This document shows positions 1,176-20,000 of a stretch of DNA of 20,000 bases, piece after piece (position 1 is the stretch's first letter; each line of letters opens with the position of its first letter). The notes beneath the pieces were generated by a model that made no database searches, was not told the DNA's origin, and worked only from the letters and a program-made list of their open reading frames with translations. This DNA is from Chiloscyllium plagiosum (taxonomy: Eukaryota): the NCBI RefSeq assembly GCF_004010195.1, contig NC_057749.1, positions 17,262,551 through 17,282,550 of the forward strand, in the 5' to 3' direction. The position numbers were made by a program, and so were the translations under genes.

Positions 1176-1948
1176 AAGCAATTAGCAGGACTTCTACACT
1201 TAATGGTAAGGTCATAGGGAGTGTTGCTGAACAAAGAGACCTTGGAGTGCAGGTTCATAGCTCCTTGAAAGTGGAGTCACAGGTAGATGGGATAGTGAAG
1301 AAGGTGTTTGGTATGCTTTCCTTTATTGGTCAGAGTATTGAGTACAGGCGTTGGGAGGTCATGTTGCGGCTGTACAGGACATTGGTTAGGCCACTGTTGG
1401 AATATTGCATGCAGTTCTGGTCTCCTTCCTATCGGAAAGATGTTGTGAAACTTGAAAGGGTTCAGAAAAGATTTACAAGGATGTTGCCAGGGTTGGAGGA
1501 TCTGCGCTACAGGGAGAGGCTGAACAGGCTGGGGGTGTTTTCCCTGGAGCGTTGGAGGCTGAGGGGTGACCTTATAGAGGTTTACAAAATTATGAGGGGC
1601 ACGGATAGGATAAATAGACAAAGTCTTTTCCCTGGGGTCAGGGAGTCCAGAACTAGAGGATATAGATTTAGGGTGAGGGGGGGAAAGATATAAAAGGGAC
1701 CTAAGGGGCAACATTTTCATGCAGAGGGTGGTACGTGTATGGAATGAGCTGCCAGAGGAAGTGGTGGAGGCTGGTACAATTGTAACATCTAAGAGGCATT
1801 TGGATGGGTGTATGAATAGGAAGGGTTTGGAGGGATATGGGCCGGGTGCTGGCAGGTGGGACTAGATTGGGTTGGGATATCTGGTCGGCATGGACAGGTT
1901 GGGCCGAAGGGTCTGTTTCCATGCTGTACATCTCTGTGACTCTGACTC
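1176..1948 (+). mobile_element. 5'-truncated CR1-type LINE (family A), ORF2 C-terminus plus 3' UTR
   Basis: ORF 1247..1693 (LYRTLVRPLLEYC..WSP..LERVQKRFTRMLPGL). Ends in a tctgtgactctgactc tail. Highly similar to copies at 5873-7501 and 11918-14953. Confidence 0.93.
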
Positions 1949-2569
1949 AATGCTATTCACTGTTGTTATGCCAACATCAATAAGTCACAGCTGTTCTTCC
2001 ACTTAATTTTGAAGAAGAACAAACTACATTTCTTCTTCAATGAAAGTATCGATAGAATAAGATTGTACCTTTGCCGGAGGCAGCATTTTGAAATTTTCAA
2101 GATATGTGTACTCTTCTTACTGCAACCTGACCTAATTTCTCTTGCTGTCATACATGGGTTGACTTGATAGGATTCTTTTGAAAAAGAATGTACAAGTTAA
2201 TGAGATGCAGGCAAGTGTTTGCTTTCATGTTAAGGAGCCAAAGTTAAATCAAGGATTGTTATTTTTGAGATCCTGGTAGAAAATGCATAATTACATTATT
2301 CTTGTGATACATCTAATAGTGCTGATTGACAGTTAACTGCCTGGCTTTGTTTGAAATTTAAATCAGGCATATTAACTCTTGCATTGTCCTGAGAAATTAA
2401 CCAGCTATTTTGTTGAGTTGAATTCAGTTCAGTCTACATATGCTTTTTGTGTACACTGTATTAATAAATGCAGCGTCCAGTACACTCAAGTGTATATTAC
2501 AAAATGGACTGTAGCAATTCACCAAAATTACTTAGATATCATCTTACACACCTTCAAATATTACAAGAA

Positions 2570-2717
2570 AGAAGGACAAAGGCAGCAGATGCATGGGAAA
2601 ACCACCACATCCCCTCCAAGTTGCTCACCATCCTGACTTGAAAATGTATCACTATTCCTTCAGTGCTGCTGGATTAACATCTTGGAATTCTCCCAAACAG
2701 CATTCTGGGTGTACCGA
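2570..2717 (+). mobile_element. LINE (CR1/L2 group) ORF2 3' fragment, left half, interrupted by the ERV-like insertion
   Basis: Translates (one frameshift) to ..HHPDLKMYHYSFSAAGLTSWNS..NSILGVP, the WNSLP-type end of LINE ORF2. Continues at 5597. Confidence 0.75.
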
Positions 2718-3250
2718 TGTTGTCCCGGTTCTCCCCTCAGTCGAAATAAAATGCTCAGAGACACTGTATAATTTTGCCTCCCCCGTCTTTTTTCTGGGCC
2801 CTGGAGGGAGAGAGAACGATTGCCCATGTGCACAGGGATATGAGTTCTTGGTCTTCTCTCTTGTACAACAGTTTCTTTATGAATTATATAGTTATTTTAC
2901 AGGGAGGAGCATCCAGATAAGGCAACATAGATATTGATTGGGTGACCATTACAATCAGCAAAGACTTAGCCATCTGCTGTTACAGAATGAATGTTCTTAA
3001 CCTTACCTGGCTTCACATATGAATACTTGTAACCTTGTTAAACTGACCTTACAAAACTGAATGCTTCCAATATTGTTAAATGGCTCTACAGAATGAATGC
3101 TTTTCCACCTTGTTATCTATTACCCTTGCCTCCAGCATCCCATTGTTAACTGCAAGCTCTTATCTGATCTGAGTCATGCTTAGTTGAACCTCTTGTTTTA
3201 TAAAACTCAGAATTTGACTCTTTGCCTGCTTATACCCAAACACATTCTCA
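2718..3250 (-). mobile_element. LTR (533 bp, 3' LTR position)
   Basis: Minus strand starts TGAGAATG directly after a polypurine tract and ends GGGACAACA. Has U3 direct repeats, CCAAT (2937-2941), TATATAA (2884-2890) and a probable decayed polyA signal AAAAAA (2788-2793), in the expected order. Confidence 0.8.
2980..3125. repeat. About 4 degenerate 34-37 bp direct repeats in LTR U3
   Basis: tacagaatgaatg..ccttg/ccttac units starting near 2981, 3014, 3050 and 3087. Confidence 0.65.
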
Positions 3251-3262
3251 TTCTCTCCTTTT
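3251..3262 (-). promoter_or_regulatory. Polypurine tract (plus-strand primer site)
   Basis: AAAAGGAGAGAA on the minus strand, immediately before the TG of the LTR. Confidence 0.78.
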
Positions 3263-3613
3263 ATCATTTCATGATAACCACCTAGATGGCACTACCAGCT
3301 TTCATAAGACTCTGACAGCCAATATTTAAGCAGGTTATTGACACACAGCATGCAATGGTGATAACAAAAAATACTAGTCAGTCACAGTAATTAGAGTTTG
3401 AAGAATCCTCCCACTTGGGAAAAAAAATTCATCAGTGAAGCTCTTAAATCCACAGTCTTTAGTGACCACTCCATCCCTTCCAAGTCGAGTGGAAATAAGC
3501 CAGTTCTCTGCAAATTTCCTTCAGTAAAATCCAACCTGAAAACAAAATCTAGTCTGTCCTTCCGCGCCACTCCACGGAGAAATCTGAATTCTTGGATCAG
3601 GGCAGTTAAATAC

Positions 3614-3926
3614 TTCACAAAACTGATGAGACTTCCATCCTTCTGGAGATGCTTCAGATGGAGAATACCAGCGCATCTGAGCATTTGGTGCAGCAGCTGC
3701 AGGCTCGGTGAATGCAGCATTCTTTGCTGCATCTGCTCCCGTTCTGCTGTTAAATGTAACAAAGCCAACTGGCTGATTTGATGTTGGCTTGATCAGTGAA
3801 CCTTCATATCCCTTAAATGATCTAAAAACAAGGTAAAGTTCACGTGGTTTAATGTCCACAGGAAGACCACTGATGAAGCATACTAACCTCCTCTTCACTG
3901 TTGTTAGCTTCACTTTTCATGCTCAT
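3614..3926 (-). pseudogene. RBPMS2: Processed RBPMS2 (Hermes)-like copy: frameshift near 3878, in-frame internal deletion near 3717-3720, probable stop loss at 3614-3617
   Basis: [14 protein letters not shown]../[87 protein letters not shown]. No introns across several junctions of the parental gene. LPVD, AAFT.PAAAA and RWY favour RBPMS2 over RBPMS. Confidence 0.88.
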
Positions 3927-3950
3927 GACTAGGGAGTTGATTGAATCCAT

Positions 3951-4109
3951 TGGATCAGGTTGTGGAGGGGTGGGCGGTGGTCCGAAGGCGTGCTTTACCT
4001 GTGAATGGAGAAACTCTAGCGAAGATTTTAGTTGCAGGAAGTATCTTTGTATTTCCCCTCTCATTCCTTCTTTGCCAAGGTGGTTGTCAGTATGATGATA
4101 GTCGCACAT
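3951..4109 (-). pseudogene. Retroviral pol (integrase)-like remnant
   Basis: YHHTDNHLGKEGMRGEIQRYF resembles the HH half of the integrase HHCC zinc finger. LQLKSSLEFLHSQVKHAFGPPP resembles the helix after the integrase core. The catalytic core is missing. Recognised by eye only. Confidence 0.5.
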
Positions 4110-5255
4110 TTAACTACACTAAAGTGTGTGTACCTATTTCAACATTCTCAGTCGTTTTGACGTCTGTTAGTCTGTTCACTATTTATGACATTATCAAGTT
4201 TTATGCAATCCATAAACTTATAAATTGTACTGCCTAAGCAATTCAGTCAATTATAAACAACAATCAATGGTCCTAAAGTCAAACCCTCTGGTACCTCACT
4301 CAGGTTATTCAAAAATTATTTTCCTTTAACAAATTGATACTTGGCTAACGTGAAAGCAGGAAGAGTATTTTGAAAGTCTGGAACGGCAAGAAAACAACAA
4401 AATGTTTCCTGTACTTTAGCAATTGGAGAGGCAGTTTCAGTTCAGATTTAAATCTCAAATATTCGTGGAAAACAAATGCTGAAAATTTTAAAATTTGTTA
4501 TCCAAATGAAAGTTCACAAATAAAACTGTTGGAATTACGGTGGCAACTTTGGTTGAGATCAACATTCTTTGACTTTGCAATATGAAGAGGGCCAATGAAG
4601 TCTTAACAATAATTGAAAGAATTTAAATGGCTCAGCCTAAAGTTCTAAAATTCTCTAAGATCTTAACAAAACATCAGACTCTAAATACACACTTTTTGTG
4701 AAAACTCTGCATTAAAAACATAGTAGCAAATATAGTACTTTAATATAGTACTTTCATCTGGCTAAAGCATGACCACTAACCCAACTATGTTTTTTTAACA
4801 GGCATTATAGAATTTCAAACAAATCAGAGGCTCAAGGCATTCAATCATTTTGTTTTAAGGTTACAAGTTTGATAATTTTGAAAAGGACATTGTACAATTT
4901 CAATGTAAGAACAAAATCTAGCCCATTACATAGCCCACAAAACACATTGAATTGAGATTCTGATTCAAACAGGGCAAAACAATTATTTAAAATGATTTTC
5001 TGAACCAGTATTTTAACAAACCGGTATTTTTAAACATCAAACACTCTGAGCATGGCACAATTTACGTTGAAACTTGCCTTTTTCAACCCAAGTATTAGTA
5101 CAACCTTAATTTGTGGTTTTCATTTTTATCGACCTATTTATCTACTCACTGAAATTACACTTAAAAAGAGATAGCCCTAGTGGTGAGCCACGTGGCGCCA
5201 CAGTCCAACCCACACTCTTTTTTTTTTTCCCCCCCCCTCCAGAACAAAGACTTGC

Positions 5256-5594
5256 AGAGGCTCAAATTTTGCACGAGGGGACTTTAACCCTTTCTCAATT
5301 TACTCCTCTCAAGGGCTCGAACCCCATTAAACCCAGAGAATGTGAATCCCAATTAAATACAGAGAGCTTCAATCTCACTTAAACACAGAGTTTGAACACC
5401 AGCACAGCGCGGAGGACTCGAACCCCAATCAAACCCGCTCAGGAGACTTGAACCTCAGTATCGTGCAGAGGACTCGAACCTCAAACAAACCCAACCAGGG
5501 GAATTGAACCCCAGTATTGCACAGAGGACTCGAACCTCAATTATTCCCCATCCGGGGACTTGAACCCCAAAACTGCGCAGGGGACTTGAACCTC
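5256..5594 (-). repeat. Array of ~13 T-loop/B-box-like hairpin units (G[AG]GG-TTCRAGT-CC[TC]C on the minus strand)
   Basis: Clean units start at 5412, 5442, 5468, 5498, 5524, 5554 and 5580 (spacing alternates 30/26). Degenerate units lie at ~5256-5400. Confidence 0.85.
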
Positions 5595-5596
5595 CC

Positions 5597-5724
5597 CCTA
5601 CAGCAAATGTACTACAGTGGTTCAAGAAGGCTACTCATCCCCACTTTTTCGAGAGCAGCTAGGGATTGGCAATTATTTCTAGCCCAGCCAGTGACACTTG
5701 CACCCCTGAATGAATTTTTAAAAA
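5597..5724 (+). mobile_element. LINE 3' end, right half of the element starting at 2570
   Basis: Reads PTANVLQWFKKATHPHFFESS*, then a short UTR and a tgaatgaa..aaaaa tail. Confidence 0.75.
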
Positions 5725-5872
5725 TAGCTGCACTACGCTGCCAGCCTGCACTACTAACAGTCCTAAGTTAGTTGTCAGCACAATTGTTTGCGTACGCATT
5801 TGCACAAAAACATGAAGGAATCAAAGCTAATGCAAAATACAATCTCAGCTAATTCTCTTTACATCAAAACCC

Positions 5873-7501
5873 AGAGTCTACAAAGTCATAGAGATGTGCA
5901 GCATAGAAACAGGTCCTTCAACCCGTCTATGCCGACCAGATATCCCAACCCAATCTAGTCCCACCTGCCAGCACCCGGCCCATATCCCTCCAAACCCTTC
6001 CTATTCATATACCCATCCAAATGCTTTTTAAATGTTGCAATTGTACCAGCCTCCACCATTTCCTCTGGCAGCTCATTCCATACGTGTACCACCATCTGCA
6101 TGAAAACGTTGCCCCTTAGGTCTCTTTTATATCTTTCCCCTCTCACCCTAAACCTATACCCTCTAGTTCTGGACTCCCCGACCCCAGGGAAAAGACTTTG
6201 CCTATTTATCCTATCCATGCCCCTCAATTTTGCAAACCTCTATAAGGTTGCCCCTCAGCCTCCGACGCTCCGAGGGAAAATAGTCCCAGCCTGTTCAGCC
6301 TCTCCCTATAGCTCAAATCCTCCAATCCCAGCAACATCCTTGTAAATCTTTTCTGAACCCCTTCAAGTTTCACAACATCTTTCTGATAGGAAGGAGACCA
6401 GAACTGCACGCAGTATTCCAACAGTGGCCTAACCAATGACCTGTACAGCCTCAACATGACGTCCCCAACTCCTGTACTCAATACTCTGACCAATAAAAGA
6501 AAGCATGTCAAACGCCTTCTTCACTATCCTATCTACCTGCGACTCACTTTCAAGGAGCTATGAACCTGCAGTCCAAAGTTTCTTTGTTCAGCAACACTCT
6601 CTAGGACCTTACCATTAAGTGTATAAGCCCTGCTAAAATTTCTTTTCCCAAAATGCAGCACCTCATATTTATCTAAATTAAACTCCATCTGCCACTTCTC
6701 GGCCCATTGGCACATCTGATCAAGATTCTGTTGTAGTCTGAGGTAACCTTCTTCGCTGTTCACTACACCTCCAATTTTGATGTCATCTGCAAACTTACCA
6801 ACTGTACCTCTTATGCTCGCATCCAAATCATTTATATAAATGATGAAAAGCAGTGGACCCAGCACCGATCCTTATGGCATTCTACTGGTCACAGGCCTCC
6901 AGTCTTAAAAAAAAAACCCTCCACCACCACCCTCTGTCTTCTACCTTTGAGCCAGTTCTGTATCCAAATGGCTAGTTCTCCCTGTATTCCGTGAGACTTA
7001 ACCCTGCTAATCAGTCTCCCGGGGGGAACCTTGTCAAATGCCTTACTGAAGTCCATACAGATCACATCTACTGCTCTACCCTCATCAATCCTCTTTGTTA
7101 CTTCCTCAAAAAAACTCAATCAAGTTTGTGAGACATGATTTCCCATGCATAAAACTATGTTGACTATCCCTTATCAGTCCTTGCCTTTCCAAATACATGT
7201 ACATCCTGTCCCTCAGGATTCCCTCCAACAACTTGACCAGTACTGACGCCAGGCTCACTGGTCTATAGTTCCCTGGCTTGTCCTTACCACCCTTCTTAAA
7301 CAGTGGCACCACGTTAGCCAACCTCCAGTCTTCCGGCACCTCACCTGTGACTATCAATGATACAAATATCTCAGTAAGAGGCCCAGCAACCACTTCTCCA
7401 GCTTCCCACAGAGTTCTAGGGTACACCTGATCAGGTCCTGGGGATTTATTCACCTTTGTGTTTCAAGACATCCAGCACTTCCTCCTCTGTAATATGGACA
7501 T
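5873..7501 (-). mobile_element. 5'-truncated, frameshifted CR1 LINE (family A) including the RT domain
   Basis: ORFs 7106..7453 (KSPGPD, PGNYRPVSL), 6889..7119 (DFSKAFDKV), 6533..6865 (FADD), 6224..6511 and 5955..6227. Tail is gagtc..gtcatagag on the + strand. Confidence 0.95.
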
Positions 7502-8072
7502 GATTATGATTTGATTGTCAAGTCAAGTTCTAAACTAAGTATTTTGTGTTAAATCATGTAGTCAAGTAAAATAAGTCCTATGAATTAGTCTGACGATCCA
7601 TCCAGTATACAGGTAATCAAACTCATAAAAATGTGTTTCAGAAAATTTCAGCTTTTCAGGGATTTAGCCTGATCCCTGCCTCACCACAATATATAACCAA
7701 CCCTGATTCTACGAAAATGACATATGTCACAGAACCTGTTCATCACTGCTTAAGACAGTTTGGACAATTTAAATCCACCAATATTATCTTCAATTCACAG
7801 AGCCAATAGCAGTATCTATATCTTTTGGTCATTCTTTGTCTCCCCAGAAGTTGTGCATTCCAATTACGTTTTCAGTCTTTGCTTCCTAAGAAATCAGAAG
7901 GGCCAGTTTTCTCACTTAGCTTCCCTTTTTGATATGGGTCTGTCTTTTTTAAAAAAAAAAATTTGAAACCATGGATTCCATCATGTGTGATACAGAACTC
8001 ATAGTTTATGAGCAGTTGCATTAGTTTAATTTCTGAACAGTTATATTATTGAATTGTTATTATGTGAAATTG

Positions 8073-8577
8073 GATTCTTAGAGATGTACAAAATGGAAAC
8101 AGACCTTTCGGACCAACTGCTTCATATCGACCAGATATCCTAAATTAATACGGTCCCATTTGTCAGCATTTGGCCCGTGTCCCTCTGAACCCTTCCTGTT
8201 CATGTACCCATCCAGATGCCTTTTAAATGTTGCAATTGTACCAGCCTCTCCACCTCTGGCAGCTCATTCCATCCTTGCATCACCTTCTGTGTGAAAATAT
8301 TGCCCCTTAGGTCCCTTTTAAATCTTCCCCTCTCATCTTAAGCCGATGCCCTCTATTTTTAGACTCCACTATATTTGGGAAAAGACCTTGTCCATTCACC
8401 ATATCCATGCCCCTCATGATTTTATTAACCTCTGTAAGGTCACCACTCAGCCTCCGAGGTTCCAGGAAAACAGCCTCAGCCTATTCAACCTCTCCTTATA
8501 CCCCAATCCCTCCTGGCAATATCCTTGTAAATCTTTTCTGAATCCTTTCAAGTTTCATAACATCTTTCCTGTAGCAG
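8073..8577 (-). mobile_element. Diverged CR1 family A 3' fragment
   Basis: Colinear with 5885-6390 but more diverged. Confidence 0.88.
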
Positions 8578-10259: not shown

Positions 10260-10990
10260 TCAACGAATCGTTTTTGGACCTGCTCTCACTCAAGCAAATA
10301 GAGACTACTTCATTACACCTCTGACCTGTACCTTGTAGTTGGCGGACCAGGTTAAAGATCATACACCAGGTTATAGTCCAACAGGTTTGTTTGGAAGCAC
10401 TAGCTTGGGAGCAGCGCTCTGAGAGCTGGTGCTTCCAAATAAACTTGTTGGACTATAACCTCGTGATGTGAGATTTTTAACTTTGTCCACCCCAGTCCAA
10501 CACTGGCATATCCCACATTCTAGTTGGTGGACAGACTGTGAAGTTGGAAGATGAATTTTGTGCCTTAGAAATCTCCAGGCTCTGCTCTGCTCTTGTAGTC
10601 TCAGTATTTATACAGATGGTTCAGTTTAGTTTCTTGTCTATGGTAAGCCCCAGGATGATAGTGGGAGATTCAGTGATAATATCAGTGGATTTGAAGGGGC
10701 AGTGGTCAGGTTCTCAGTTGTTTGAGATGTTACTTGGTACTTGTTATTGCTCATCAGGTCACGTCAGAGCGTCCAGTTCCTGTTTCGTTTGGACACAAAT
10801 ACTTCAGTGCCTGAGAAATTGTGATTGCTGAAACTTCAACTGACTGTTGACTTTGTAATGGAGAGTGTGTCTTTGATAAAGCAGCTATAGATGGCTGGGC
10901 CTACGAACTCTTACATTGATGTCCTGTGGTGGAGTGATTGACTTTGAGCAATCATAGCCATCTTCCTTTGTGTTTTGTATGACTCCATTG
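10260..10990 (-). mobile_element. Old CR1/L2-group LINE ORF2 fragment, interrupted at 10351-10520
   Basis: Minus strand gives IDKKLN*T..INTETTRAEQSL and YKVQVRGVMK-like remnants on either side of the insertion. Outer boundaries are approximate. Confidence 0.65.
10351..10520. mobile_element. Short palindromic Penelope-like insertion with TSD
   Basis: Inverted arms at 10351-10405 and ~10424-10481. Flanked by tagttggcggac (10336-10347) and tagttggtggac (10521-10532). The Penelope assignment is from recall of this shark repeat. Confidence 0.75.
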
Positions 10991-11917: not shown

Positions 11918-12615
11918 GAAGAGAAAAGGGTTACCTCAAATTACAACAGGATCTGTACCAGATGGGCCAATGAGCTGAGAAGTGACAGATACAGTTTAAT
12001 TCTGATTAATGCGAGGTGCTGCATTTTGGGAAAGCAAATCTTAGCAGGACTTGTACACTTAATGGTAAGGTCCTGGGGAGTGTTGCTGAACAAAGAGACC
12101 TTGGAGTGCAGGTTTAGTTCCTTGAAAGTGGAGTTGCAGGGAGATAGGATAGTGAAGAAGGCATTTGTTTTGCTTTCCTTTATTGGTCAGAGTATTGAGT
12201 AGAGGAGTTGGGAGGTCATGTTGTGGCTGTACAGGACATTGGTTAGGCCATTGTTGGAATATTGCGTGCAATTCTGGTCTCCTTTCTTTCGGAAGGGTGT
12301 TGTGAAACTTAAAAGTGTTCAGAAAAGATTTACAAGGATGTTGCCAGGGTTGGAGGATTTGAGCTATAGGGAGAGGCTGAACAGGCTGGGGGTGTTTTCC
12401 CTGGTGCGTCGGAGGCTGAGGGGTGACGTTATAGAGGTTTACAAATTATGAGGGGCATGGATAGGATAAATAGACAAAGTATTTTCCCTGGGGTCAGGGA
12501 GTCCAGAACTAGAGGGCATAGGTTTAGGGTGAGAGGGGAAAGATATAAAAGAGACCTAAGGGGCAACTTTTTCATGCAGACGGTGGTACGTATATAGAAT
12601 GAGCTGCCAGAGGAT
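11918..12615 (+). mobile_element. CR1 family A, left part (interrupted at ..ccagAGGAT)
   Basis: From ~12030 it is colinear with 1176-1760. ORFs 11807..12202 and 12218..12451. Confidence 0.93.
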
Positions 12616-13027: not shown

Positions 13028-14760
13028 TAGAACATAAAACAGAAATACAGCGCAGAACAGGCCCTTCAGCCCTCAATGTTGCGCCGACCTGTGAACTATT
13101 CTCAGCTCATCTCCCTACACTATCCCATTATCATCCATGTGCTTATCCAAGGATTGTTTAAATGCCCCTAAAGGCAGGTAAGGCATTCCATGCCCTTACC
13201 ACTCTCTGAGTAAACAACCTGTCTCTGACATCTGTCTTAAATCTATCACCACTCAATTTGTAGTTTTGCAAATTACAAGCTGACATCATCATTCTAGGAA
13301 AAAGACTTCTACTGTCTACCCTACCTAATCCTCTGATCATCTTGTATGTGTCTAGCAAATCCCCTCTTAACCTTCTTCTTTCCAATGAGAACAGACCCAA
13401 GTCTTTCAGCCTTTCCTCATAAGACCTTCCCTCCAGACCAGGCAACATCCTGGTAAATCTCCTCTGCACCTTTTCCAATGCTTCTACATCCTTCCTGTAA
13501 TGGGGTGACCAGAGCTGTACACAATATTCCTAGTGTGGCAGCACTAGTTGCAACATGATATTCCCGGCTCGGGTGGCAACTTACAGGGATCTATGCACAT
13601 GGACTCCAAGATCCCTTTGCACATCCACACTACCAAGAATCTTTCCATTGACCCAGTATTCTGCCTACCTGCTATTCTTCCCAAAGTGCATCACCTCACA
13701 TTTAGCTGCATTGAGCTCCATTTGCCACCTCTCAACCCAATTCTGCAGATTATCCAAGTCCTCCTGCAACCAGTAATATTCTTCCAAACTGTCCACTACT
13801 CCACTGACTTTAGTGTCATCTGCAAACTTACTAACCCATCCACCTATGCCTGCGTCTAAGTCATTTATAAAAATAATGAACAGCTGTGGTCCCAAAACAG
13901 ATCCTTGTGGCACACCACTAGTAATCAGACTCCAGACTGAATATTTTCCATCAACACCACTCGCTGCCTTCTTTCAGAAAGCAAGTTTCTAATCCAAACT
14001 GCTAAATCACCCTCAATTCCATGCCTCTGCATTTTATCCAACAGCCTACCATGTAGAATCTTATCAGAGGCTTTACTGAAGTCCATGTATACCACATCAA
14101 CTGCCCTACCCTCATCTACATGCTTGGTCACCTTCTCAAAAAACTCAATAAGGTTTGTGAGACACGACCTTGACAAAAACATGTTGACTATCTGAAATCA
14201 AATTATTGCTTGCTAGATGATTATAAATCCTATCTCTTATAATTCTTTCCAAAACCTTTCCTACAACAAAAATAAGGCTCACTGATCTATAATTACCTGA
14301 GTCATCTCTACTGCCCTTCCTGAACAAGGGCACATTTGCAATCCTCCAATGCTCTGCTACTAAACCTGTAGACAATGACGACTCAAATATCAAACCCTAA
14401 GGCTCTGCTATCTCCTCCCTCGCTTCCCAGAGAATCCTCGGATAAATCCCATCCCTCAAAGCCATCCATTCTACTTATTTGTGACTCAGTATTCACATCG
14501 ACGACAATGCCCTGTTCCTGAGTAAATACTGAAGAAAAGTATTCATTCAGTGTCTCCCCAATCTCTTCCGCCTCCACACGTAACTTCCCACTACTATCCT
14601 TGACTGGGCCTATTCCTACCCTAGTCATTCTTTTATTCCTATCATACCTATAGAAAGCCTTAGGGTTTTCCCTAATCCTACCGACTAAGGACCTTTCATG
14701 TCCCCTCCTTGCTGCTCTTAGCTCTCTCTTCAGGTCCTTCCTGGCTACCCTATAACTCAA
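13028..14760 (-). mobile_element. CR1 family C, 5'-truncated, RT region with several internal deletions
   Basis: ORFs 14383..14763 (ENPKAFY, LNEYFSSVFT), 14145..14393, 13925..14182, 13665..13913 (PQGSVLGP, FADD) and 13158..13478. Tail is tagaacataaaacag. Confidence 0.93.
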
Positions 14761-19495: not shown

Positions 19496-19741
19496 AAGTC
19501 ATACAGCATGGAAACATACTCTTCGGTCTCATTCGTCTGCGCCGACTAGATATCCCAATCTGACCTAGTCCCATTTGACAGCGTTTGGCCTGTGTCTCTC
19601 TAAAAAGTTTCTATTCGTGTACTCATCCAGATGCCTTTTAAATGTTACAATTGTACCCCCCCTCCACCACCTTCCCTGGCAGCTCGTTCCATACACTCAC
19701 TGCCCTCTGCATGAAAAGTTGCCCCTCAGACCCCTTTTAAA
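19496..19741 (-). mobile_element. Diverged CR1 family A 3' fragment
   Basis: Colinear with 5884-6130. Confidence 0.88.
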
Positions 19742-19742
19742 C

Positions 19743-20000
19743 AGAGAACATAGAAGAATACAGCGCAGTACAGGCCCTTCGGCCCTCGATGTTGCGCCGA
19801 TCCAAGCCTACCTAACCTACACTAGCCCACTATCCTCCATATGCCTATCCAATGCCCGCTTAAATGCCCATAATGAGGGAGAGTCCACCACTGCTACTGG
19901 CAGGGCATTCCATGAACTCACGACTCGCTGAGTAAAGAACCTACCCCTAACATTTGTCCTATACCTACCCCCCCCTTAATTTAAAGCTATGCCCCCTTGT
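19743..20000 (-). mobile_element. CR1 family B 3' end, runs off the window
   Basis: agaacatagaagaa tail. Near-identical to 12616-12833. Confidence 0.88.

Follow-up and report, generated by a model that had tools for sequence, protein, structure and literature searches.

An intronless RBPMS2 copy in a probable high-copy, non-autonomous endogenous retrovirus family of the shark Chiloscyllium plagiosum

In the acutely transforming retroviruses that carry viral oncogenes (v-onc), a spliced cellular messenger RNA (mRNA) has been captured by template switching, viral genes have been lost and a helper is needed. A related dependence is seen in the mouse ETn elements, which are copied in trans with MusD. 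Here we describe an element in a 20,000-nucleotide stretch of the genome of Chiloscyllium plagiosum (contig NC_057749.1, called C40 below, positions 17262551-17282550; hereafter, the window) that carries, between retroviral parts, a complementary DNA (cDNA) copy of the host gene RBPMS2. Capture by v-onc viruses is also covered in the part of the review PMC13297096 on which we draw. The closest described germline cases are two crocodilian endogenous retroviruses (ERVs) with captured host mRNAs, CrocERV31, in which nectin3 replaces env, and CrocERV29, which carries KIT-ligand, as given in the portion of Chong et al. 2014 (PMC4299795) used here. Retroposition mediated by long terminal repeats (LTRs), with secondary retroposition, is treated in the portion of Tan et al. 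2016 (PMC5131818) used here, which also mentions maize Bs1. A full-text literature search, with Repbase and Dfam outside its scope, turned up neither an element carrying RBPMS2 nor any account of gene capture by shark ERVs.

Read on the minus strand from window position 5596 to 2718, the locus comprises a 56-bp tandem array, an AT-rich spacer, an integrase stub, the intronless RBPMS2 cDNA (the cargo), a polypurine tract (PPT) and an LTR. This succession of parts had been proposed in an initial annotation made from the letters alone, and it held throughout, with boundaries shifting by a few bases at most. With high confidence, we assign the stretch 2718-5596 (-) to a high-copy non-autonomous LTR family that derives from an ERV, probably of class I and similar to murine leukaemia virus (MLV); this member of the family is old, truncated at its 5' end and dead. 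As in the crocodilian elements described in that portion of PMC4299795, a spliced host mRNA sits within an ERV, env is replaced (there by nectin3) and several germline copies share one capture. The resemblance to the cases in the portion of PMC5131818 considered here is also close, with a partial mRNA between discontinuous parts of an LTR element, no poly(A), and renewed retroposition as a non-autonomous element. Those cases are young and mostly single-copy or at few sites, whereas the shark family is old and amplified hundreds-fold; similarity of a few bases at the capture junctions was demonstrated for the young cases. Like ETn/MusD and Bs1, the element has an internal region that is non-coding or foreign, keeps LTR, primer-binding site (PBS) and PPT, and would spread with the aid of a helper, but ETn has no recognisable host gene and Bs1 is a low-copy plant element, whereas the shark family is high-copy and bears RBPMS2. 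The v-onc viruses, in turn, are exogenous, cause somatic tumours and are short-lived, whereas the shark element is fixed in the germ line in many copies and carries no growth gene.

The parent gene (protein P0115) lies on the window's own contig and spans more than 105 kb. Exon 1 (C40 25026091-25026206) ends at a gtaag donor, and further exons are found at 25088013-078, 25094300-450, 25100771-919, 25128921-995 and 25131898 onward, with canonical splice sites, such as the gtaagt donor of exon 6 and the ccag acceptor of exon 7. Joins were seen from both sides for exons 3 and 4, 4 and 5, 5 and 6, and 6 and 7, together with the exon 1 donor and the exon 3 acceptor; exon 2 (residues 15-52) was not located in searches of the own genome. 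The element copies are contiguous over every join, including that of the intron splitting the 3' untranslated region (UTR) 7 nt past the stop codon. In the full-length copies, homology to the host starts 73 nt before the ATG. Upstream of that point the host has a C-rich tract and no acceptor site, and the host mRNA may start at this tract. At the other end, homology stops after approximately 220 nt of the 3' UTR, which continues further in the host, and no poly(A) follows (at ~3405 in the window); the window and the least-deleted copy (L039) agree on this host endpoint to within 1 nt.

In the window copy, the last 26 nt of the host 5' UTR (3927-3952, aligned to host exon 1, L051 691-806) lead into a coding remnant at 3617-3926, in which the exon-exon joins are exact, and then into host 3' UTR at 3405-3616, made up of 7 nt of exon 6 and then exon 7, joined at 3607/3606 (aligned to L056 8921-8995 and L057 1898-2090), all on the minus strand. 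An open reading frame (ORF) at 3521-3916(-) matches Pfam RRM_1 (E 4.1e-7, 30.2 bits against a cut-off of 20.7) and has 167 protein database matches, the top ones being RBPMS2 proteins. The remnant is badly damaged: it has a 3-nt deletion near its start, a 1-nt frameshift at ~3876 and a family-wide deletion of 85 codons joined at 3717/3716, and the host stop reads GAA at 3616-3614. These frame defects, together with the 5' truncation, bear out the earlier view that this copy is disabled. The stretch of ~350 bp behind the coding remnant, which had been put down as probable UTR, is so only in its first ~212 nt (3616-~3405); the last ~140 nt before the PPT (3263-3404, -) have no match in the host exon. 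This non-host stretch is common to both subfamilies of the family (described below), reaches up to the LTR of the full-length-cargo copies as well, and is presumed to be viral.

The viral sequence that precedes the cargo was traced in the rarer subfamily, of about 34 copies, in which the full RBPMS2 coding sequence is preserved downstream of RNase H and integrase from an MLV-like pol. With the RNase H ORF as query, a word-indexed search of longer proteins returned no match, and an exhaustive search with this 168-aa ORF, from a part of the element that we term internal region X, then gave 117 matches at E <= 1e-3. All nine of the long matches scanned are retroviral Pol proteins with RNase_H, the matched part lying at the end of that domain, and six of the nine also have MLVIN_C; a further, short match spans the RNase H domain in full. 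In L039, the aligned sequence runs from RNase H through the zinc-binding domain to the integrase core, with 44% identity to the Pol protein P0121 over 244 residues (E 7e-60) and a second alignment, to P0178 (E 3e-40), that reaches L039:1095. The window retains a stub of the integrase N-terminal zinc-binding (HHCC) domain at 4062-4109 (-), which aligns to residues 171-186 of P0121, in its Integrase_H2C2 domain (10 of 16 identical, E 5e-5), and whose motif extends into the full integrase core in L039. The other fetched full-length copies and all window-type copies lack 658 nt of integrase, and in such integrase-deleted copies the zinc-binding domain is reduced to its first 14-16 codons. The piece that follows the core in L039 corresponds to window 3953-4061 (-) and contains a splice-acceptor-like ...cacag|g. 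It aligns weakly, between integrase core and C-terminal domain, at the same place in three of the nine Pol proteins (E 0.05-0.6), and we take it as the probable linker between these domains; Pfam returned nothing relevant for the piece. An ORF at 4109-3849 (-) reads from the integrase-like motif directly into RBPMS2 coding sequence. The MLV-type integrase C-terminal domains of the relatives, together with a 4-bp target duplication, fit a class I ERV, of which no reverse transcriptase (RT) is left in the element. A separate reading of the 'pol-like stub' as host 5' UTR was rejected, as homology to host exon 1 reaches back no further than 26 nt upstream of the ATG in the window and 73 nt in L039, and the stub itself aligns to integrase.

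The two ends of the cargo bear on how it was acquired. A processed pseudogene of RBPMS2, made by a long interspersed element (LINE), could have landed in an ERV and been copied along with it; LINE RT fragments are plentiful around the locus (for instance, RVT_1 at 6533-6871(-)), and the end product between LTRs would look similar. We consider this origin highly improbable. The cargo has no poly(A), A-run or flanking duplication of its own, as had been noted initially, and it breaks off inside the host 3' UTR rather than at its end. In L039, its 5' end directly follows integrase sequence, and its 3' end lies ~140 nt before the PPT, which is where env would be expected. Judged from these alignments, the ends look like internal switch points, unlike those of a LINE-made retrocopy, and the cargo, set between an integrase remnant and the pre-PPT stretch, occupies the place of env in a non-autonomous ERV, as first proposed, and perhaps, on weaker grounds, that of the very end of pol.

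The own genome (3.56 Gb) was searched for further copies; first-look candidate counts are unscored and indicative only. The LTR (2718-3250) drew 2151 candidates, of which 40 were scored, with all 39 non-self scored matches 82-85% identical, and the 848-nt cargo segment drew 653, with all 39 non-self scored matches 81-87% identical and covering at least 748 nt. A second query, the 3' half of the cargo, drew 588 candidates, and 28 of its 39 non-self scored matches were new, so that at least 67 distinct cargo loci have been verified. The spacer drew 620 (scored matches 81-85% identical). In the fetched loci a single order recurs, namely LTR, leader of ~280 nt, array of 150-700 nt, spacer, cargo and LTR. 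Paired LTRs, which the initial annotation had suggested seeking, were found in eight of them (L020, L024, L025, L026, L031, L032, L033 and L036), seven pairs being 84.7-88.8% identical (Jukes-Cantor distance 0.09-0.15). Exact 4-bp target duplications flank L025 (CTGG), L026 (ACTG), L032 (GTGT) and the solo LTR L002 (CGTT), and duplications matching at three of four positions flank L031, L033 and the window copy. A PBS stands 4 nt past the 5' LTR in full copies. For comparison with it, tRNA-Ser(AGA) genes were located in the own genome with ARAGORN and, as CCA is added to the 3' ends of tRNAs, a 3' CCA was appended; the PBS of L032, L020 and L024 matches the complement of that 3' end at 17 of 18 bases. 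The leader carries an AAG|GTAAGA site, which we infer to be a viral splice donor. The family is, as had been supposed, multicopy and mobile with a host cargo, and its junctions are the same throughout. That unrelated insertions (array, spacer, retrocopy and solo LTR) came together here by chance might be suggested by the lack of a 5' LTR in the window copy and by a spacer and array of no known origin, but dozens of loci, spread over many contigs, show identical order and junctions within paired LTRs, which already refutes this idea; we hold it to be practically untenable.

Some of the fetched copies are of interest in themselves. Besides that of the window, the 5'-incomplete copies L023, L030, L035 and L038 all have different breakpoints. 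Secondary loss of the 5' LTR from the window copy was considered and set aside, the comparison favouring neither such a loss nor its absence. In L035 (G000:C11:55283500-55291500, minus strand, near 4511), the array directly follows the initial ~25 nt of the 5' LTR, so that an internal deletion affects LTR, PBS and leader, with a breakpoint unlike that of the window. Three full-length-cargo copies occur within 112 kb (G000:C26:40839585, 40889378 and 40951690). L040 and L044 align at ~80% across most of the two fetched loci and past the mapped element pieces, which suggests an old segmental duplication of one insertion.

The two subfamilies differ in their vehicle as well as in their cargo. The rarer has an LTR distinct from that of the window (282 candidates) and a different PBS; its internal region X drew 261 candidates. 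Its specific 5' segment drew 41, of which the 40 scored comprise the query, 33 copies, host exon 1 and five weak partial matches. In the window's subfamily, all 25 aligned copies have one and the same deletion junction, which joins residue 72 to residue 158, and they also share a 170-nt deletion upstream of the ATG. One side of the junction is in exon 3, ~7 nt short of its end, and the other is within exon 5, with at most 1-2 nt of shared sequence. Exon skipping was rejected as its source, because these ends are not exon ends and there is no GT..AG at the breakpoints; on the sequences compared, the 85-codon gap is best described as a deletion within the element line. Since 33 other copies of the full-length type match across the 5' junction, the 3' host end is shared and one deletion junction is found in 25 of 25 copies, a single capture is indicated. 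The codon for host tyrosine-161 reads TAG in 17 of the 24 window-type copies that are readable there, and in the other seven it is one base off TAG and two off the host codon. This implies that the window's subfamily spread with a cut-off frame.

One locus combines the two vehicles. In L047 (G000:C42:19218001-19224500), from ~1646 to 5893, the LTRs, PBS and RNase H region are those of the rarer subfamily, while only the last 260 nt of the spacer are present, together with the deleted cargo; the LTR pair is 88% identical. This mosaic points to recombination between the two vehicles. The rarer subfamily's PBS is seen at L047:2196-2216 and is unlike the tRNA-Ser one. When the window-type leader is compared with L047, a single 47-nt stretch matches (leader 72-118, around the donor-like site), at 79%. 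In contrast to the crocodilian ERVs, as portrayed in that portion of PMC4299795, the shark vehicle has lost gag, pro and RT, its LTR and PBS have been swapped, and its pol relatives are MLV-like rather than ERV4. Frames for gag, pro, RT and env are absent from the window copy and from all fetched copies, by ORF listing and Pfam.

Whether the cargo has been of use, past or present, to element or host bears on the interpretation of these copies. RBPMS2 is a germ-cell RNA-binding protein, and this role of the parent gene could favour a functional cargo, engaged in germ-plasm targeting or domesticated as a retrogene. The frame of L039 is open across residues 14-175, and one annotated copy (P0001, 132 aa, 'RNA-binding protein with multiple splicing 2-like'), which has the family deletion, is open as well. 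In addition, the ratio of nonsynonymous to synonymous divergence (dN/dS) between the host and six full-length copies is 0.42, as against 0.70 and 0.83 in shifted frames. This low value may, however, stem from constraint on the host branch alone. Within the family the picture is the opposite: 0.82 in frame against 0.72 and 0.63 in shifted control frames for the 25 window-type copies (300 pairs), and 0.78 against 0.57 and 0.52 for the six full-length ones. Because the in-frame values are not below those of the control frames, no selective constraint on the cargo is indicated. The initial annotation had proposed a search for an intact ORF and a dN/dS calculation; no window-type copy of the 25 has an intact cargo frame, and the calculation gave no sign of constraint. 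A stop stands right after the deletion in 17 of 24 copies and one base away in the other seven, and the deletion takes out the last strand of the RNA recognition motif (RRM). P0001 has an N-terminal extension out of the integrase-linker piece and a tryptophan where those 17 copies have the stop, and its open frame looks like a chance change. A functional cargo is, on balance, very unlikely, and the cargo protein appears to be a passenger, with no evidence found that it mattered for spread. The crocodilian ORFs, by the account in the portion of PMC4299795 used here, are under purifying selection; the shark cargo has no such signal and, in most window-type copies, has a stop after the deletion.

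A bolder idea, which we think very unlikely, is that the founder made a working RBPMS2-type protein at the env position, which could have coupled the element's RNA to the germ plasm or Balbiani body of the oocyte and thereby promoted inheritance through the germ line, or that the hundreds of copies with RBPMS2 sequence now feed small RNAs acting on host RBPMS2, or both. If true, the germ-cell RNA regulator would have served a retrovirus as a tool rather than being carried as a passenger.

The full-length copies share 82-89% identity with the host exons. Over residues 53-175, the six copies have no amino-acid change in common except at position 62, where the Callorhinchus protein has the same residue; for this reason, capture and spread were probably close in time. 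The window insertion itself can be followed into other organisms. A contig labelled as organism B (X9 record 23) spans spacer, array and left flank, and one labelled as organism C (X15 record 1) spans the right flank and LTR junction, each ~4-5% diverged. As the organism B contig carries the same junction, the insertion, already truncated, predates the split of organisms A and B. Judging by LTR-pair divergence, the family would be ~2.5-3.5 times older than that split. Short-sided joints in X15 skip 2947-2959 nt and are most likely other copies of the older flanking repeat, not the empty site. Contigs of X20, guessed to be RNA, are 90-95% alike to the window; paralogues or DNA are possible sources.

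The remaining parts of the window copy, all on the minus strand, are as follows. The upstream copy of the target duplication, TAGG (5597-5600), and the downstream copy, TCGG (2714-2717), match at three of four positions and were left around the insertion in an older interspersed repeat. The repeat is multicopy (1070 first-look candidates), and its intact copies L049 and L050 run uninterrupted through the insertion point. The initial annotation had described an older LINE split at a duplication; the interspersed repeat and the duplication stand, and the repeat is a putative LINE at most. The copy begins within the tandem array (5322-5596; repeat families D8 and D11), which in full copies follows the leader; the 5' LTR, PBS and leader of the full members are absent. 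Tandem Repeats Finder (TRF) reports a period of 56 at 5412-5594 (3.3 copies, 80% matches) and a decayed period-26 stretch at 5322-5390. Each 56-bp unit consists of two halves of 26-30 nt, each with a short T-arm-like hairpin. To call it a hairpin array, as was done at first, is apt insofar as there are stems of 4-5 bp with T-arm-like loops, but over its full length the array shows no more folding than shuffled sequence does (z -0.95 and +0.70). An Rfam scan of window 2600-5700 gave two chance-level rows only (E 0.6-1). The AT-rich spacer (4111-5321), an internal part of the window's subfamily, is multicopy and has no long ORF, and Pfam found no match for spacer, leader or array ORFs from five full copies. 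At the other end, the 12-nt PPT AAAAGGAGAGAA (3251-3262) directly precedes the LTR here and the 3' LTR of other copies. That 3' LTR (2718-3250, 533 bp, TG..CA) has a TATA-like box and a decayed AATAAA, and its 39 scored matches and its pairing in eight loci agree with the first description of it as the LTR of a repeated family.

The neighbourhood contains many copies of one LINE family, at 1182-1943(+), 5919-6871(-), 8070-8574, 11920-12614, 13430-14167 and 19502-19963. The element is bracketed by two of these LINE copies in inverted orientation (92-94%), with 4.0-4.7 kb between them. A near-perfect palindrome, with 42-nt arms, 90% complementary, and an 18-nt spacer, is found at 10364-10465. 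The host gene also has a repeat connection: the alternative last exon of host isoform P0115 (48 residues; G000:C40:25109259-25109402, L046 9259-9402) resembles ORFs in repeat copies (L045 4512-4723 and 9395-9589) and an ORF opposite a LINE in the window (6390-6563(+)), and it looks like an exonised repeat fragment.

The origin that we propose begins in an ancestral particle, where, during reverse transcription, the polymerase would have switched from viral RNA to a co-packaged spliced RBPMS2 mRNA and then back. The resulting provirus would have retained pol as far as integrase, with a break, by the weak alignments above, perhaps in the integrase C-terminal domain. Env and the remainder of pol would have given way to RBPMS2 sequence that begins 73 nt upstream of the ATG and ends ~220 nt inside the 3' UTR, and the viral ~140 nt, PPT and LTR would have closed the chimera downstream. 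Unable to replicate alone, it would have been copied by helper retroviruses, losing first gag, pro and RT and then most of integrase; the full coding sequence is kept in ~34 copies. One descendant would then have acquired a different LTR, the tRNA-Ser PBS, the tandem array and the AT-rich spacer, and lost 85 cargo codons. Template switching, co-packaging and help in trans are steps of a model; what was seen directly is the anatomy, the copy numbers, the exon joins and junction positions, the PBS match, the target duplications and the occurrence of the insertion under other organism labels.

Several points weigh against this account. The assignment of 3953-4061 to the integrase linker or C-terminal domain depends on alignments at E 0.05-0.6, and copy numbers beyond the 67 loci depend on the unscored candidates. 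A truncated start inside the array next to an intact flank with a duplication is not expected from ordinary two-ended integration. A cargo-free autonomous relative with either LTR was not found: pol lies within 1.5 kb of none of seven LTR-only loci, and P0121 draws 4471 first-look candidates in the genome, none of them tied to either LTR.

The family matters, in the first place, for genome annotation and for work on RBPMS2 itself. One copy is already annotated as an 'RBPMS2-like' gene, and RBPMS2 probes, primers and small-RNA maps in Chiloscyllium plagiosum will match many loci. The forms of the element (integrase-bearing, integrase-deleted, hybrid and cargo-deleted) make up a dated and internally ordered series, well suited to research on how co-packaged retroviral RNAs recombine. 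Vertebrate ERVs that have captured a spliced host mRNA are known from a handful of low-copy cases, such as the crocodilian elements with 6-9 copies in the portion of PMC4299795 used here, as against 67 verified loci and ~600 candidates in the shark. The change of vehicle and the many copies imply that a defective retrovirus with a host cargo can act as a successful, long-lived non-autonomous transposon.

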